NCBI GenBank assembly: GCA_043228905.1
Contig: JBHGNT010001286.1
Span: forward strand, 1-10,298
Length of the DNA: 10,298 bases
Source of the DNA: Azolla caroliniana
Lineage: Eukaryota; Plantae; Polypodiophyta
Direction of reading: 5' to 3'
Positions 502 to 10,298 of the stretch are shown piece by piece (within the stretch, counting starts at the first letter, position 1; every line of letters begins with the position of its first letter). The notes under the pieces are model-generated. The model was not told the DNA's origin and made no database searches. It was given only the letters and a program-made list of their open reading frames with translations. A program made the translations under genes and the position numbers.

Positions 502-956
502 TGTTACGGGCATGACCATATAATATCCCGTGGTAAGAATTTACCGTAGTATTCTATACACGTGGATAAGTGTGAGGGTTAAACGAGAGTGTAAAGAAGG
601 GGAGGATTACTTTTAATCCTCGGGATTGAGACAACCCATTAGGTCAAGTGTGAACTTGCATGGGGGCCTTGGGTATTGCTATAAATAAGAGGCCTAGCTA
701 CCCTCATTGGATCATCTTTTGACTACATCGAGACTCTGCTCTTGTGGTGGGTCAACTCTTGTAGCGAGCATGCCAGCACCAGGTACGACTCGACGCCATT
801 GCGGTGGTATGGGACGCTGATCGAGGCTCGAGTCCGTCTCGATCCCTTCGCTCGGGGGTGGTCGGGTGGATCGGCACCCTTCTTTCTCTTTCTCCTTTCT
901 ATCTATCATTTCTTTATCCTTATCTTAAGCTTACGTTAATATTTAGATCTATAATA
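502..956 (+). mobile_element. Solo LTR (455 bp) of a second family
   Basis: Starts TGTTA and ends TAATA (probably TAACA with C>T). Flanked by the 5-bp direct repeat CATGG (497-501 and 957-961). Has an internal TATAAATA. Its removal restores the host reading frame. Confidence 0.88.
680..687 (+). promoter_or_regulatory. TATA box of the solo LTR
   Basis: CTATAAATAAGAGG is a typical plant LTR promoter context. It orients the LTR plus, which makes the 502 end U3. Confidence 0.65.
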
Positions 957-1327: not shown

Positions 1328-1943
1328 GGTTCCTCTTCCCACTCTGGGCCGCTAACTATGCTAACCTGCGCTTCGCGGATCGTAGTGGGGGCGTGGGTCG
1401 GCTGGGCTGTGGTGCCGGTAGGCCTCGGGGTGGGAATAGTACCGTAAGGTACTGTTGTATGATCGGCTTGAGCTTTTTGCCTGCCTGATACGCATGCAGG
1501 CCTTCCCTTAATGCTGGCCCTATGATGACCCCCCAATCGACCGCACGCCCTTCAACGGTATCGATAATAATGCCCGCCTTCTGCTTGGGCATCCCATATG
1601 CGTTGACATGTACGCATCCGACCTCTAACAGGAACTTGGCAACTTCACGAAAGAAGGGATCCAGGATTTGCTTCGTTCTATAGGCCTTGGTGGAGGAGGA
1701 ATATGGCCCGAAATATCGCTGCAGCGCCTCTGCAGGAGGGATTTCGAAATGCCTTTCGCCTAGCGATGACAGGTCCAACTTTTTTCGGATGGAAGAGTTG
1801 GTGACCGTGTCGATGTTAAGCTTCCTGGCGATGTCCATGGCATCCGGGTGTGGGGGTGCCTTTGCGACCCGGATGTACCCATCCAGGTGTTTCTCCACGA
1901 GCCATCGGCGTAAGGCAGTAGAGATGAAGATCGACATCGCTAG

Positions 1944-2090
1944 TGTTACGGGCATGACCATTTAATATCCTGTGGTGAGAATTTACCGTAGCCTTCTTTA
2001 CACTCTCGTTTAACCCTCACACTTATCCACGTGTATAGAATACTACGGTAAATTCTCACCACGGGATATTAAATGGTCATGCCCGTAACA
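1944..2090. mobile_element. 147-bp LTR-end-derived hairpin (MITE-like) insertion with 48-bp terminal inverted repeats
   Basis: 1944-1991 matches the reverse complement of 2043-2090 at 47/48. 1944-1991 matches solo LTR 502-549 at 45/48. The reverse complement of 1992-2090 matches 502-600 at 97/99. TSD GCTAG lies at 1939-1943 and 2091-2095. Ends are TG...CA. Confidence 0.93.
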
Positions 2091-2386
2091 GCTAGAGTAG
2101 GTTCGTGGGAAGGAGATTGGTGGTTGCGGTGGGCTGGAGCTCTGTGATAGGATGGAGGAGAAGGTGAGGGGGACGAGCGATGGGAGCACTGATAGTTAGA
2201 AGGTGGGTTTCTGTTTTGTGTAGAAGATCTTCTATTTCCTTCTTTTTGTGGCTTAGGGTTCATTGGGCGGTGATCCATCGTGGTGCCGCGTAGTCCTTTT
2301 AATAGTCGCTATCTTTTTTCTTTTTTTTTCCTGTAACGGTTATATACAACCTATTTTTACATTATGGTACAAGTGGGGCCGTCCCT

Positions 2387-3530
2387 TTACACCGCGGGTT
2401 CTCCGACACTGTCCTGTTTGGCGGTGAATGGGTTAGGTGGCGTAGGGCCCAGGTAAGGTTTAAGGCGAAACCCATTCACCTTTTGCCGTACTACTTCCCC
2501 GGCCAGCGTACCTAGTTGGAACGTGCCTTGTTCCGCTCCAATTATCCAGTATGGGCCGGTCTAGCGGAATCGTAACTTCCTCGGCATATGGCCCATGCGG
2601 GTTTGGAAAACCAGCACCGCTCGACCGACGACGAACTCCTTTTCCCTTGCGTTTCGATGTCGATCCACAAACGCTTTACGCCGTCGTTGTTCCTGCTCCA
2701 ACACAGCCATGCTGTGTACGAGGTTTCCCCCGAGTTCGAGTAGCTGGTGGAGCCATACCTCCTCCGACTTGGCTTCCGATAGTCGGTCCCGTACCTGAAT
2801 CCGCAAACTGGGTACCTGAAATTCGACCAACATCACAACCACCAACCCAAACGCTAGTTGAAACGGTGTTGACTGTATGCTTGTTTTGTAGCTAGTTCTG
2901 TACGCCCATAACGCACTCTGTAATTTGGTATCCCAGTCCGTTCTATTTTCATTGACAATTTTCTTCAAGATGGTCTGCAATGTCTTGTTGGTGGATTTTG
3001 CTAACCCATTCGCTTGTGGATAATATGGCGTACTCTTCTTATGGACTACGATGTAATGATGTGTTAGTTCCCGAACCACCGTATTGAGAAAGTGACTCCC
3101 CTGGTCACTGATGAGCTCAATCGGACAGCCGAACCGGCACTAGATGTGCTCGTAAAGGAATCTGGCTGTGACGGCTGTCGTATTTTCTCGTAGTGCCTTT
3201 GCTTCTACCCACTTGGTGCAGTAATTTGTAGCTACCAATATGTATTTATTGCTCGTACGGGCTGCCGTCGGTGTGAAGGGGCCACGAAATCCAATCCCCA
3301 CTTTTGGAAGGGGTCTAGCGGTAATACGGGCTGGTGTGGCATCCTTGCGCCCTCCGTGGGCTGGCCCATCCGTTGACACAAATCACACTTTCTACAATAC
3401 TCGGATGCGTCCTTCTGCGTTGTTGGCCACCATAAGCCCGCCTGCCATATCTTCCGGGCTGTAACGTCACCCGCGTAATGGTCGCCTGCCGTGCCACAGT
3501 GCGCCTCCCATAAAACTGCTTCTATCTCAT
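2387..3530 (-). pseudogene. Integrase (HHCC zinc finger, DDE core, GPY motif)
   Basis: H..H..CRKCDLC, WGLDF, ELISDQGSHF, TPYYPQANGLAK (catalytic E mutated to K), *TGPY and VNGFRLKPY. Confidence 0.93.
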
Positions 3531-3859
3531 CCTGACGTACCCCACGTTGCCAAATGCCGTCACTGCCTTTGTGATATAAAACTCCTTCTACGAGGCAGAA
3601 GTTACGGCTTCGGACGGCTAGTTGTTTCTTCTCGTCCGTGCGTAATTGTGGTGGAGGCAGTCCAGTAGTCAAAAGGTATGTCATTTCCATAAGCCACCGG
3701 TCTAGAAAGGTCGATTCCGTTCTTTCTGCTAGTGCTGCTACCCGCAGGATGTCGGCGTCCGGAAAATCGTCATCATCTTTCTGTACTGTTTCTCCATTCT
3801 CGAGTCTGCTCAAAAAATCTGCCACCACGTGTTGCGTCCCTGGTCGGTGTTGGATTACG

Positions 3860-4170
3860 AAATTGAATTCTTGGAGCAACAGCATCCATCGCGCCAATTT
3901 CCCCGTTAGGGCTTGTTTCTCCACCAAATACAGTAGTGCCGAATGATCCACGTGGAACGTGAATTTCCTCCCTAGTAACTAATGCCGAAATTTATTGATG
4001 CTATAGATCTTCCCTAGCGCCTCCCGCTCCGTTGTGGAATAGTTACACTCTGTTGTTAATAATTTGCGACTAGCGTAGTACACTGGCCGGTACCAGTTTG
4101 GTTCAATGAGCTGCATTAGTGCACTTCCTATTGCTATGTCCGAGGCGTCGACGAACACGTGGAATGGCTT
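3860..4170 (-). pseudogene. RNase H domain (Ty3 type)
   Basis: FHVFVDAS, PVYYASRKL, NYSTTEREAL, VDHSAL and LARWMLLLQEF. Boundaries are approximate. Confidence 0.93.
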
Positions 4171-4439
4171 CGCCCAAACTAGTGGTTGTACGATGGGGGC
4201 CTGTGTGAGCATTATCTTAAGTGCCTCATAGGCCTTGTCCTCCGTTGCTGTCCATTGGAAGGGAGTCCAATGTACGACAGCATGTAACGGCGTGGTGAAG
4301 TCCGCCAAATATCGTATCATCCGACTATGCCACCGTATTTGTCCTAAAAACCGGTCGAGTGATTTCGCGTTTGTCAGAGTTTTGGCTTGCGTAATCGCGG
4401 AGATTTTGTTCGGATCGACCGCTTTTCCCTCCTTGTTGA

Positions 4440-5050
4440 CTATATGGCCCAGGAGAGTCTCGCTGGTCACGCCGAAGGCACATTTCGCGGGATTCAGGCT
4501 TAAGCGTGCGGTGCGGCAACGTTCCAGGAACAGTTGCAAGTGCGTAAAATGGTCTATTGTTCTCCCATATACCGTAAAGTCATCTAAAACAACATGCATG
4601 AACGCCAAAATGTATTCCCCAAAGATCTCCGTAATTGTCCATTGAAATGTTGTTGGCGCCGTTTTTAGCCCGAACATCATGACGGCTACCACATAGACTC
4701 CCCAGTCCGTGACAAATGTCGTCTTTTCTTGGTCCTCGGGATGCATGCGTACCTGGTTATACCCACTGAAGCCATCTAAAAAACTGTACATCTCATGTCC
4801 TGCGACGACGTCCAATACGCTATCGGTGAAGGGTAAAGGGAATGCGTCCGTAATGGTTATGACGTTTAATTTTCGGTAATCCACGCATACCCGTATTTTG
4901 CCGTTTTTCTTTGGAACGACCACTATTGGGCTTAACCAGGTGGCTTGTTTAACTGGCCGTATGAACCCCGCCTTCAGGAGTTTGTCAATTTCTTCTTTTA
5001 CGCGGGTCGCATAGTTTGGGTTCATGCGGTAGCAGCGCTGCTGGACAGGT
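4440..5050 (-). pseudogene. Reverse transcriptase domain
   Basis: WLSPIVVVPKKNGKIRVCVDYRKLN, FLDGFSGYNQ, MMFGLKTAPTTFQ, VLDD (DD at 4579-4584), LNPAKC and LLGH. Boundaries are approximate. Confidence 0.95.
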
Positions 5051-5595
5051 TTTGCGTCGGTTGCTAAATTGATCTTATGCTGATAGAACTTGGGATCTAA
5101 CCCCTTCATGTCCTTGTGAGCCCAAGCGAACATATGTTTATATTTCGTGAGTAGTGTGATCATCGTGTTTCTCTAGTCCGGCCTTAATTTCTTTGCGATG
5201 GAGAGGAAACGGGGTTCCGACTCCGTACCCACATTTACTTCTTCCAGGGCGGAGGCGGTGACTCGTCGTGAAATTTCCATTTCCCTTTTGAATGCAGCCC
5301 GTGCTCTGCTGAGTTCCAATATGGAATCTGGGTTTGGTTCGTAAGGCTCGTTGTGGAAAATAGTGGCCGTGGCATATTCTGCCGCGGTTGCGATGATGTC
5401 AATTTCGAACAACGGAATGATCCGTGGGTGCTCATCTAGGTATGCCTCTAATTCTGCATTCTCCACCCTAGCCAACATATTTATATCTTCTACGTATAAT
5501 GGTGTTATACCCTTGGGTTGTGGTGTGCTTCCTTCCGTAGGTACGCGAACCTTGGTGCGTCCGTGTCGGAAACTGATACACTTGTGTTGCCAGCT

Positions 5596-5900
5596 CTACT
5601 TGATATTTGCTGCCCGAAGCCATGGTCTGCCCAGAAGCACTGGGTACGCCCCTAGGGCGTCCAAGGCGAGGACAACCGCCGAGATGTCGAAGCGATGTCC
5701 GCCCATGATAATGCCTATCTTGCGAATTAACCCCAATGGTCGTACTGAACGGGTATCTGCCATTTGGAGCCAGAATGGGCAAGCCTCCCATTCTGAGATG
5801 CCTAATTGCTTGCAAGTTTTCGCGCTAATTACATTGACGCCTGAGCCGCCATCAATTACGCATCCAAGAATTTCTTGTCTGTGTAATATTAATGTAATAG
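5596..5900 (-). pseudogene. Aspartic protease domain
   Basis: CVIDGGSGVNVIS (catalytic D at 5851-5853) and YPVLLGRPWL. Boundaries are approximate. Confidence 0.88.
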
Positions 5901-6192
5901 CCGGGTTGTGGTGATCCACTCCAAGCGGGTCGTCGCTAACGTCTGTAAGGTTTGTAGCGACGCTCACCGCAGGTATGCCTGTCACCCGTTCTTCCATGGT
6001 CTGGCGGAAGCGTTGGACTAGCTGAAACAGCTTCTCCATGGTTAACATTATCTCACAGCCCGCTAATGCTTGCCAAATGGGGTCCGGGACCGGTCCTTCG
6101 TCTTCTACTTGCTCCCTCGCATTCGTGGACTCCTTCCGCATGCGCTCTGTATTGGTCGCGTTTGCTTTTTCCACCCATGCCTAGGCTTGTCG

Positions 6193-7743
6193 TCATATCT
6201 CATCTTGCGTAGCCCAATAAGCCGTTTTTGTTTGTTGGTGCGTCGTGACTTGCTGCACTTCCGCCGTAATCGTGATGACGGTGGGCCCCTTGCCCTTGCG
6301 TGCTGGGCATTGCGTGGCATAATGTCCAGGCTCCTGACAAATAAAACAATGGATACTTGATTCACCCTTCTCGATTCCTGGTGGTGTGTGCCGATCCCCT
6401 AGTGCGACTTGCTCCTCCTGGTCCGGCCTGGTTTGTCGGAACGCACGCGGTGGTTGCCGTTGGTCTCGTCGTGGTTCTTGGTGTCGCTCATCTCCCGAGC
6501 TTTCGTCGTAACGCCGGTGATCTCGATATTGCCGTGGCTTCCCACGATAACCATTGAAGCCGCCACGTTTGTTTGCCGGCTGGTGATTCTCATAGCACCG
6601 GCCCCCTTTAGCATAACTCAGATGTCCACGATAATCCTCATACTCTGGTTCGTCTTCCTCAGAATCATTGTGATTTCGGCGATTCCGGTGGTGCCGGTCG
6701 TCCCGTGGGTTGCGATCCATATACCGTGGTCGGTCTTCTTGCCTCCTTTGTTCAGTATGGCGTGGGGGACACTGTGTGTCCATGCTGCGGACTGTGGGAG
6801 CGGCTCTGTTCAACATATTGTATTCGCATTGTTCGACTGTGTGAGCCTTTGAGTGGCAGATTGGGTAGTGGATTCGCATGTTGCACTCCACTGCAGAATG
6901 CCCCGAGTTCAAGCAAATCGTGCACTGGATTACTTGACGAAACTGGCGTTCCTCGTCCTGGGGTAATGCTTTTCGTAAGGAGGAGATAGAAAACCTTTCC
7001 TCCTCCTCGTCCAACTTGACCTGTAACGCTCGTTGAATGACCATATTTTCCGTTTCCCCTTTCACGCTATTGTTGTTGAGCGTTGCCCGGATGGGTCGGC
7101 GTAATGCTGCCAGAATTGTCTCTCGAGCCTCGTCCTCTGCGGTGCTCCGTTCTAGTTTCCGCCGTAAATTTTGGAAACGTAAGCTAAAGTCTGCGATCGT
7201 CTCGGTTGGCAGTTGCTTAATCGTGTAGAACTGTCCGAGGATTTCGCATTGTGGAACCCTCCGATGGAAGAACCACAAGAAAGCGGACTGCAACTGATCG
7301 AAGGTCGTGATTGCTGGTAAATCCATCTGTGAATGCCAAAACGCCGCTCGCCCATCCAATGTTAACCCGAACTCCGTCATTTTCGATTGGTGCGCTACCG
7401 CCTCCGAAAGGCTCTGTGCCATGTGGTTCGCATTTCAGACATTAAGGAACATACGAATATGGGTTGCGGCGTCGGTTTCGCCGTTAAAGCAGGGATAGGC
7501 AAAGGCCATGCTGGGGGCTACGACGGGTCGGGAAAGACCAAATGATGGTTGTGGTGAGCGTGCTCCTCGCGTATTGTCGAGGTGTTTGGAGAGCGAAGAA
7601 TCACCTTTGTAATCACGGCAGGTAGTACTGAGGTCGCTGAGGCAAGGCTTCTACCGTGCGCGGTCCTCTGCCTGGCGTGTGACGGACCTTGTGATTGGCC
7701 GGTCTTGTCGTGTTGGTTCTCTGGGGCGTCTGCGGCTAAACAT
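6193..7743 (-). pseudogene. gag: Gag region: capsid-like retrotransposon gag domain plus CCHC zinc knuckles
   Basis: Motifs LDGRAAFW, FDQLQSAFLWFF and IKQLPTETIADFSLRF. Knuckles are CTICLNSGHSAVEC (6883-6924), (C>Y)PICHSKAHTVEQC (6826-6867) and CFICQEPGHYATQC (6307-6348). Confidence 0.9.
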
Positions 7744-7779: not shown

Positions 7780-7793
7780 CACCAAGAGTGCCA
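7780..7793 (-). promoter_or_regulatory. Primer binding site (possibly a degenerate tRNA-Arg type)
   Basis: TGGCACTCTTGGTG begins 4 nt after the LTR's terminal CA and 50 nt upstream of the gag ATG. The tRNA identity is not verified. Confidence 0.7.
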
Positions 7794-7797
7794 AAAT

Positions 7798-8235
7798 TGT
7801 TACCGATTAGGAACACGGTCTGCGGTTAGTCCTTCGACCTAGAACTCCAAGTGATTGTGGAACAACGAATGGGGCGTCTATGCGTAATGCGTAGGGGAAT
7901 GTTCCCCATAACCTATCAACGTATAAGGGAGATGGCTACAACCGACTCCTTAGCAATGGTTACACTTACGTTCTTACACGCTCAGGTATTCCAGACACAC
8001 AATAGATTTAGCCGTACCTATACACAGACTTTCAGAGAAGATAGAATTCTATTACGATACGCTTCTTTACATTCCAAAATACACGCTCCCTCTATTAGAG
8101 GTTTTCTGCCCTTTATATACGCAGGGTCTATTTAGCCGTTCACGCTTCCTGCGTGAACCGTTACATGCGTTATGATCTTATATTATTTCTTATTCCTACG
8201 CTCTTATCCATCGATTACTATTCCGGTGGACAACA
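7798..8235 (-). repeat. LTR of the Gypsy element (438 bp, acting as 5' LTR)
   Basis: Termini are TGTT...AACA. On the minus strand it ends ...GGTAACA, 4 nt before a TGG-starting PBS, and it contains TATATAAAGGG. The partner LTR is not in the window, so the 8235 boundary rests on the terminal motif. Confidence 0.8.
8111..8119 (-). promoter_or_regulatory. TATA box of the Gypsy LTR
   Basis: Minus strand reads GTATATAAAGGG, oriented toward gag. Confidence 0.6.
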
Positions 8236-8631: not shown

Positions 8632-9312
8632 CTAGTCCTTCGGCCCTTCGGCTCTTTTAGACCTGGTGCTCGATTCCGGCTCTTCTCTTGCTACCTTTGA
8701 TTCAACTTTCCAGCTCTCCTCAGCTTGTTGTTGTAGTCCCATCTGTCTCCTTAGTGTTCCAAAGTGGTGATCTGGGCGCAGTTTCGTCACGCAATCTACA
8801 ATGTTCTCCTTTGTATCAACCTTCCAGACTTTGATCTTTTTATCAGTGACAAGCTCATGTATATGGTGATACCTCACCTCAATATGTTTCCTCATGGCAT
8901 GATAAACTAGATTCTGAATGAGGTGGATTGCGCTATGTGAGTCACAATATAGAGTTAGAGTGGGATGGTCGAATCATCTCTTGGCCGAAAAATTGACTGA
9001 TAGTTGTTGCATCCAAATTGCTTCTTTTGCTACCTTCAACGCAACGATGTACTCCGCCTCTGTGATGGAGATTGCCATGTACATTCTTGGAGTTTTGACC
9101 TCCGTAGGTGAAGATGTAGCCTGATGTCGATTTCCAATTGTCGGGGTTGTTGCCATAGTCAGAATCAGTGAAACCTCAACTTTGGTCGGATAGTTAGATC
9201 TAAAAGTCAGTTGTAAGTTCTTGGTTCCGCAAAGATACTGGAATATGTGTTTAACAACTTCCCAGTGTTTCTTTCCGGGATTAGAATTGTAGCGCATGGT
9301 GACGCTTACAAC
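8632..9312 (-). pseudogene. Old Ty1/Copia pol remnant (RT C-terminus and RNase H)
   Basis: RYNSNPGKKHWEVVKHIFQYLCGT, TDSDY...KSTSGYIFT (alternate frame), AISITEAEY, LYCDSHSAIHL, KHIEVRYHHI and KVDTKENIVD. Contains frameshifts and a deletion. Confidence 0.9.
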
Positions 9313-9750
9313 CATAGATTGACACATGCGTGATATTCTTGATAATCTCCATGCATGATACTCGCAATATTCGAGAATACGAAATGGCCCTAAGAATATT
9401 ATAAAACCATTCGTTTCGCAAAATAAATATACAAATAAATAAATAAATAATTTTTTTAAAATAGATAGATTTAATTCACTACAAAAAAACAATCATTCAT
9501 TAATAGATTAAAAAAATATGATTCGTATTTACTGTCCTTTATCACTAGTGTCAAATTGTTGAGAGTCGAACTCAACTTCCCATAGTAATAGGTTTCACAC
9601 TAGCTTATGGTCATACCAATCTAGTTTTGTAAATAGTAGAAAGGGCACTTGCCCTAGTTTAGTTGGTATTTAAACCAACCCCTTGTAACTTAGTTACGGT
9701 TGGAAGTATTTTGGTTAATGTAATATACAATCTTTTATCTCTATCTTAAG

Positions 9751-9776
9751 CTCTCTCTCTCTCTCTCTCTCTCTCT
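9751..9776. repeat. (CT)13 microsatellite inside the Copia LTR
   Basis: Read directly from the sequence. Confidence 0.95.
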
Positions 9777-9793
9777 GTGTTTTGCCTTACGTG

Positions 9794-9796
<3 letters not shown>

Positions 9797-9826
<30 letters not shown>
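9797..9826. repeat. (AC)15 microsatellite inside the Copia LTR
   Basis: Read directly from the sequence. Confidence 0.95.
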
Positions 9827-9829
<3 letters not shown>

Positions 9830-9870
9830 TATCTTCCGCTGCATTACACCACCAGCTCCATTTATTTACA

Positions 9871-9882
9871 TGGTATCAGAGC
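9871..9882 (+). promoter_or_regulatory. Primer binding site, initiator tRNA-Met
   Basis: TGGTATCAGAGC is the canonical plant tRNA-iMet PBS. Confidence 0.95.
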
Positions 9883-9974
9883 ATGTGGTTGCTTAATTGA
9901 ATCTATTCAACTGTGTTGTGGTACACGCTGACGATCAACAGAACCGGCTCATCAACAGAGAAGAAATCGACATA

Positions 9975-10298
9975 ATGAACACTCAGATGGGAAGCGCTCT
10001 TCCTACAGAGAAGCTTGACAGAACGAACTTCGCATCTTGAGAATACAAGATGCATCAATACCTTGTCGGACAAGGTTATTGGAGCTACATTGAAGGAGCT
10101 CACGAAACTCAACCCAACCCAACACACGCCGACTATCCTGCTTGGGTGCAGGCCGCAAGCCGTGTGTTGTATTGCCTTGCATCATGCATTCATGATCATA
10201 TGCTTGGCTATATTCGAGATTCGAAAACACTGAAAGAAGCTTGGGGAAACCTCAAGAAGATTTTTGCGGCCAACACGGCTGCACGAAAGCTCCAACTT
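9975..10298 (+). pseudogene. gag: Copia gag N-terminus (DUF4219/UBN2-like), partial, with a premature stop
   Basis: MNTQMGSALPTEKLDRTNFAS*EYKMHQYLVGQGYWSYIEG...KTLKEAWGNLKKIFAANTAARKLQL. TGA at 10038-10040 replaces the conserved Trp. This frame is absent from the supplied ORF track. Confidence 0.9.

Follow-up and report, generated by a model that had tools for sequence, protein, structure and literature searches.

The 10,298-nt stretch of DNA analysed here (the window) contains an insert that is made of two inverted U3 ends of an abundant chromovirus LTR, enclosed in one 5-bp target-site duplication (TSD). The insert was likely generated by a fold-back during reverse transcription and likely integrated by the integrase through a U3 end on both sides, a reading that, taken as a whole, is given a probability of about two in three. 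Together with its counterparts at other loci, it most likely represents a class of real, recurrent and probably dead-on-arrival chromovirus fold-backs, so that LTR integration of an aberrant form, and no novel class of transposon, would be involved.

Structure of the Insert

The two-arm arrangement proposed in the initial annotation was re-checked against a solo LTR of the same family present in the window (Table 1) and proved correct, the 147 bp at 1944-2090 being LTR nt 1-48 joined to inverted nt 99-1. The short arm is identical to the solo LTR at 45/48 positions and the long arm at 97/99, and a comparison of the two arms shows a single difference in 48 nt, a CpG C>T change at nt 28 (short arm versus long arm). 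The 16-mer that starts the LTR occurs three times in the window against 0.07 occurrences expected. The GCTAG duplication is perfect, the absence of R/U5, PBS and PPT inside 1944-2090 was confirmed, and the parts of the host ORF to the left and right of the insert share a single frame register, in agreement with a host frame restored on removal. The TG...CA termini flush with a 5-bp TSD, together with an empty site, are those of an integrase-type insertion.

Both arms carry two variants, 19T and 34G, that are unlike the solo LTR, as had been noticed earlier. Of these, 34G is the majority allele (51/71 related copies) and 19T is rare (2/73). The rarity of an allele that is nevertheless present in both arms indicates that one template likely served for both and that it was not the neighbouring solo LTR; a sibling copy is therefore the likely donor, as first suggested. 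The solo LTR and the insert with their TSDs (497-961 and 1939-2095) belong to one chromovirus family and represent two separate insertion events, at a distance of 1.4 kb, within the 3' part of a single host element.

Table 1. Features of the window (positions in the window) and inserts with an inverted U3 arm in metagenome contigs; registers are sums i+j of LTR positions.
Feature	Position	Strand	Remarks
TSD GCTAG, left copy	1939..1943		sequence; exact empty site in 3/4 runs
Short arm: nt 1-48 (U3) of a chromovirus LTR, likely produced by copying back	1944..1991	+	sequence comparison
Long arm: nt 1-99 (U3) of this LTR in inverted orientation	1992..2090	-	97/99 identical to 502-600
Imperfect LTR stem, 3' side (LTR nt 88-99); putative snap-back primer end	1992..2003	-
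Imperfect LTR stem, 5' side (LTR nt 49-60)	2031..2042	-
TSD GCTAG, right copy	2091..2095		sequence
Solo LTR, same chromovirus family	502..956	+	455 bp; reference for arms, not donor; TSD CATGG at 497-501 and 957-961
Host gag-pol, Ty3/gypsy (gag, zinc knuckle, RT, RNase H, integrase)	2564..7434	-	broken by stops
Host extra ORF 3' of pol, part upstream of insert	2096..2278	-	61 codons from ATG
Host extra ORF, part downstream of insert	1359..1943	-	no Pfam match
Copia RT/RNase H remnant	8632-9360	-
Copia LTR with CT and AC microsatellites, PBS-Met, gag start	9560-10298
L016			119 bp; TSD perfect; register 121
L064			120 bp; TSD perfect; register 121, rank 1/44
L053			93 bp; TSD perfect; register 90
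L071			90 bp; TSD perfect; register 90
L072			130 bp; TSD 4/5; no stem at joint, 2/9 pairs
L021			261 bp; outer TSD 4/5; register-148 extension in another subfamily, rank 1/84
L039			register 148, crossover other than the window's
L033			register 148, crossover other than the window's; runs into PPT
L042			register 89, read by eye

The Parent Family

A scan of metagenome contigs, which may not come from the species of the window, for the start of the LTR yielded 73 loci, among which 65 different left flanks occur. Twelve complete LTRs from these loci are 82-94% identical to the solo LTR. A PPT plus TA precedes the doubled LTR end in 6/73 loci, and a tRNA-Met PBS follows the opposite end in 4 of the 12 complete LTRs, so that the doubled end is U3, in agreement with the original assignment. 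The ORF before the PPT at one locus (L014, a collapsed high-coverage contig) encodes an integrase (rve, SH3_Tf2-1, Chromo E 2e-7), and the combination of integrase, SH3 and chromodomain identifies the parent as a chromovirus. The U5 terminus reads CTCTAACA or CTCTAATA, meaning that the terminal inverted repeat of the LTR itself is at most 5 bp long; an LTR with a decayed 8-bp terminal inverted repeat was considered and rejected on this account. In many copies, high-coverage contigs included, U5 ends in TAATA rather than TAACA (window position 956; L014, L028, L036, L050, L051), and this non-canonical end could favour the use of U3 ends.

Recurrence at Other Loci

An inverted second U3 arm was found at 10 of the 73 loci, a fraction biased upward, since short inserts assemble through where ordinary LTRs break contigs, and one that includes L068, a probable chimera of L064. 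Of the remaining loci, 27 read at least 126 nt without an inverted arm and 36 end too early to tell. The concern that the window's insert might be a one-off event can thus be set aside. All eight closed inserts stop exactly at LTR nt 1, none continuing into the flank; four of them have perfect TSDs and two have TSDs matching at 4/5, and no TSD was found at L033 or L068. The right flank of L068 is identical to that of L064 at 78/79 positions, for which reason it was treated as a probable chimera, though kept in the count.

At least seven different junctions occur among the 11 inserts (window included), most of them at stems of the LTR. The initial annotation had proposed that varied junctions would indicate recurrent aberrant integration and identical ones a mobile family; the outcome is the former. 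The binomial P of 8e-5 for five of seven junctions falling in strong registers is post hoc, the reference LTR having been picked per junction and several junctions sharing register 148, and can serve as a guide only. Two pairs share their junction: L016 and L064, which have different TSDs and are 105/119 identical, and L053 and L071; no shared derived change was found within either pair. In all five inserts tested, the 3' flank is not a mirror of the 5' flank (9-16 of 40 letters matching). Subfamily alleles are shared by the arms of L064 and L072, and in part by those of L016 and L021, and differ between the arms of L033; one subfamily allele was seen at four loci only, all of them fold-backs. 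A search of the metagenome contigs with an inverted pattern for inserts of 132-162 bp gave no exact match, the inserts found otherwise being outside this size or having a decayed second arm.

The largest insert, L021, is composed of three LTR pieces (1-116, 1-33 and inverted 111-1), and the U3 start in its interior follows a TA, as an unprocessed cDNA end would. TA stands between PPT and LTR in 6/6 copies with a PPT and before 7/67 other starts. This TA, whose T may be LTR nt 116, is a weak additional hint of a cDNA origin. L033 shows the end of the integrase and a PPT, then LTR nt 1-103 with slipped repeats covering roughly nt 79-97 behind it, and lastly a register-148 fold-back, and may be an element whose right end is U3 instead of U5, or a chimeric contig. 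Two further loci were excluded from the count: L007, a 34-bp piece with no TSD that may be a tiny fold-back, and L008, in which LTR nt 1-124 are followed by a second LTR start.

The Joints and the Stems of the LTR

The window's joint had been described as having neither microhomology nor filler. There is indeed no exact overlap and no filler, but the joint lies in register with a stem of the LTR. Positions 51-60 of the LTR pair at 9/10 with nt 88-97, exactly in the register of the joint (i+j=148), and this pairing is one of the two best among 3510 position pairs (LTR nt 15-125); with the long arm fixed, the joint has rank 1/72. At all three stem mismatches the insert shows the long-arm letter, as expected if a strand ending at nt 99 folded back and was extended over nt 48 to 1. 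A joint in the register of a stem is the mark of a fold-back. The stem at L016 has six Watson-Crick pairs and one wobble out of ten positions, allowing for a 1-nt deletion.

The first 112 nt of U3 contain several alternative stems. Folding of plus-strand prefixes as ssDNA placed 3' ends at nt 66-68 in register 90, which is the joint of L053 and L071, with P 0.67-0.98, and strands ending at nt 97-99 in register 148 with P ~0.34, the latter in the window's LTR only. The inserts themselves are ready-made hairpins of the family's U3 start, with a 48-bp stem of -95.6 kcal/mol (z -17) according to folding.

Contigs of Independent Sequencing Runs

The window was compared with Logan contigs of four runs (X1, X3, X5 and X6), each of which contains at most 0.49 of the window's words. 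The empty site that had been proposed as a check is present: an exact join of 1938 to 2091 (skip of 152, five letters fitting either side) occurs in three of the four runs, and a variant empty site in all four. The window's exact junction was not seen in the contigs of any of the four runs, contigs being able to show presence and not absence. At position 1993 the ordinary LTR letter is found in all contigs counted (X1 295.5/295.5, X3 129.9/129.9, X5 179.8/179.8, X6 none); these reach 29-31 letters to the nearer end and are read by us as L039-type junctions (register 148). Two further joints were seen: one of 1965 to 2024 with five ambiguous letters, in X3 and X5, is compatible with register 90, and one of 1992 to 2058 on the opposite strand, in X1, X3 and X5, fits the L021 type by its endpoints, the intervening letters not being displayed. 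On this reading, Logan contigs of three studies hold joints fitting the register-148, register-90 and L021 types.

One register-148 contig has a depth of 295 against 35-62 for single-locus joints of the same run, depth being a rough guide. Run X1 has a joint, of a kind not displayed, that connects LTR nt 72 with TA and the LTR start and resembles the internal start of L021. When contigs were set against the whole LTR for a U3/U5 fold-back comparison, all joints among the 15 of 61 listed were deletions and none was inverted. The junction 20-mer had no match in viral contigs, which is uninformative.

Origin of the Inserts

The favoured explanation, one of three options in the initial annotation, is a fold-back cDNA inserted by two U3 ends, and the evidence on its side is the stem-register joint, the rare alleles shared by the arms and the invariable end at nt 1. 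According to the accessible text of two papers, the plus strand begins at the PPT and reads U3 first (PMC6894440, PMC7197481), so that its 5' end is the only template to stop at the LTR start. A snap-back of this strand would therefore give U3 at both termini and an end at nt 1, as in the eight closed cases. In such a pathway, a PPT-primed plus strand would halt at nt 99 and its 3' end would pair with nt 49-60, either within that strand or on a sister plus strand, extension then proceeding to nt 1, where the template ends. Double-stranding, the least supported step and one that we infer, might come about when a further strand primed at the PPT invades the hairpin, or when two short plus strands act as primers for one another. 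Finally, the integrase would use both U3 ends for a normal 5-bp staggered insertion; its taking a two-ended donor of 90-150 bp is a presumed part of the model. As the start of U3 offers several alternative stems, the accident would recur at a few hot spots. The inserts thus likely reflect recurrent de novo formation and not one MITE family, and the products, having no PBS, PPT or TATA region, are predicted to be dead on arrival.

Several observations fit the fold-back less well. The joint of L072 has no stem, those of L053 and L071 fail to rank when the 9-pair score is used (with fractions of 0.58 and 0.24), and register-148 pairing was not predicted by ssDNA folding for the L020 or L048 sequences. 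To these are added the differing subfamily alleles of the L033 arms, the two loci with no TSD and the absence of the window's exact junction from the four runs.

Foremost among the alternatives, and unlikely, is a template switch after integration, in which a solo LTR or element would be present first, a replicating strand would fold at the stem, copy to nt 1 and return at the 5-bp terminal inverted repeat, the rest being deleted and the old TSD kept. No unusual integration is needed here to account for TSD, shared alleles and stem register, but the strand has to return more than 300 bp away at a microhomology no longer than 5 bp, and shorter still where copies end in TAATA; furthermore, none of the closed inserts returns elsewhere or enters the flank, although the same search would catch such cases. 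Concerted integration of U3 ends from two cDNAs, followed by resection and microhomology-mediated joining at the stems, was another of the original options and is quite improbable. Stems can act as homeology and the L033 arms do differ in subfamily alleles, as two donors would allow; the arms of one insert, however, share rare alleles (19T at 2/73), and the window retains two unpaired long-arm letters beyond the stem that flap trimming would presumably have removed. Every joint seen is within 112 nt of the ends, which also speaks against this route, in a sample that favours short products.

The remaining option of the initial annotation, a MITE-like non-autonomous family in which a single hairpin, or a few, had one origin and later moved as whole units through the action of a retro-integrase or related transposase, was not supported as the main source and is distinctly unlikely. 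What it explains readily are the identical junctions at different TSDs (L016/L064, L053/L071), the subfamily allele confined to four fold-back loci and the higher depth of the register-148 contig. Against it stand the variety of junctions and the lack of a shared derived change in either same-junction pair, while hot spots at fixed stems would yield identical junctions anyway; in addition, the inverted pattern at the window's size had no second match in the metagenome contigs. To our knowledge, no excision activity has been described for LTR integrases. Excision is given as unknown even for Ginger in the accessible part of PMC2836005. With the same low probability, some of the U3/U3 hairpins may have been re-mobilised as units, which would amount to an LTR-founded, MITE-like family served by a retro-integrase and to an LTR-to-TIR conversion caught in the act, a missing step towards Ginger-type transposons. 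Least probable of all is an inverted chimera created by assembly or amplification at the window locus. The window's junction letters did not appear in the four runs and L068 exemplifies a chimeric contig, but the perfect TSD, the exact empty site, the CpG difference between the arms and the same register at L039 all oppose it, and a fold-back chimera would mirror the flank, which was not seen.

Relation to Known Systems

TRIMs are small, non-autonomous, LTR-derived elements with a 5-bp TSD that retain direct LTRs together with PBS and PPT and remain capable of being copied. The inserts resemble TRIMs in being small, non-autonomous, LTR-derived and flanked by a 5-bp TSD, and differ from both TRIMs and LARDs in having no direct LTRs, PBS or PPT. 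With plant chromovirus solo LTRs and insertions they share U3 sequence, TG...CA ends and the 5-bp TSD, whereas two inverted U3 ends, the absence of R, U5, PBS and PPT and a length of 90-261 bp set them apart. Like MITEs, they are short and non-coding, with long terminal inverted repeats, a TSD of fixed length, no ORF and a strong hairpin. However, their arms are LTR sequence, length and junction vary from insert to insert, and each was likely made afresh; two junction pairs aside, they do not form a homogeneous family derived from one founder.

Ginger1/Ginger2 and GingerRoot have TGTNR termini, TIRs of 40-270 bp and integrase-type chemistry, and they encode a transposase and have TSDs of 4 or 6 bp, 5 bp being given only for TDD-4/5, according to the accessible text (PMC2836005, PMC6839031). 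The inserts differ from them by a 5-bp TSD, by having no ORF and by inverted ends that arise in one step and enclose no gene. In the portion available, Bao et al. regarded the LTR-to-TIR conversion as unclear and guessed at two LTRs inverted by chance (PMC2836005). Inversion products of autointegration are likewise aberrant, particle-made cDNAs with an inverted segment, described in the accessible text as circles whose joints are sites attacked by the integrase with an LTR end (PMC7197481). In contrast, the window's product is chromosomal and its joint connects internal to internal positions (nt 48 to nt 99) at a stem, with no LTR terminus in it; L021 does have an extra internal U3 start. Head-to-head tandems arising by double insertion are inverted pairs of LTR elements with the target motif in the junction between whole elements, as far as the text seen of PMC5932611 goes, and differ from the window's insert, in which no target DNA is found at the joint.

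No description of short two-U3 inserts was found in the literature searched, a search that left most subscription papers outside its scope, and older work on retroviruses or Ty may cover single cases. The present analysis contributes a group of very short, TSD-flanked inserts whose joints map to the stems of one U3.

Implications

Should the fold-back explanation be true, an LTR integrase would accept in vivo donors that measure only 90-150 bp and carry U3 at both ends, and the stems of U3 would set where plus-strand synthesis derails, the genome keeping a readable record of those points. Direct LTRs would, moreover, be turned into terminal inverted repeats in a single step, a conversion left open in the accessible text of the Ginger paper (PMC2836005). 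Read-through transcripts of the hairpins could yield small RNAs against the whole family, a putative role; for EVADE, LTR hairpins were sought as a silencing trigger and none was found at close range, according to the part of the report available (PMC11624286). MITE finders would misfile U3/U3 inserts, which are look-alikes of DNA transposons predicted not to move again.

The Host Element and the Rest of the Window

The window consists of stacked plant LTR retrotransposons, with a decayed minus-strand Ty3/gypsy element as host of the insert and Copia pieces to its right. The extra ORF of the host (1359-2278, minus) lies in the sense of pol and is deeply covered by contigs of the host family. 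Just 3' of pol, at 2312-2341, a pyrimidine tract is followed by 10 nt that equal the start of the host 5' LTR (near 8165) on the opposite strand, and the coverage by sibling copies falls at this place. The primer site of the host, beside its 5' LTR at 7780-7797, is not of the tRNA-Met type.
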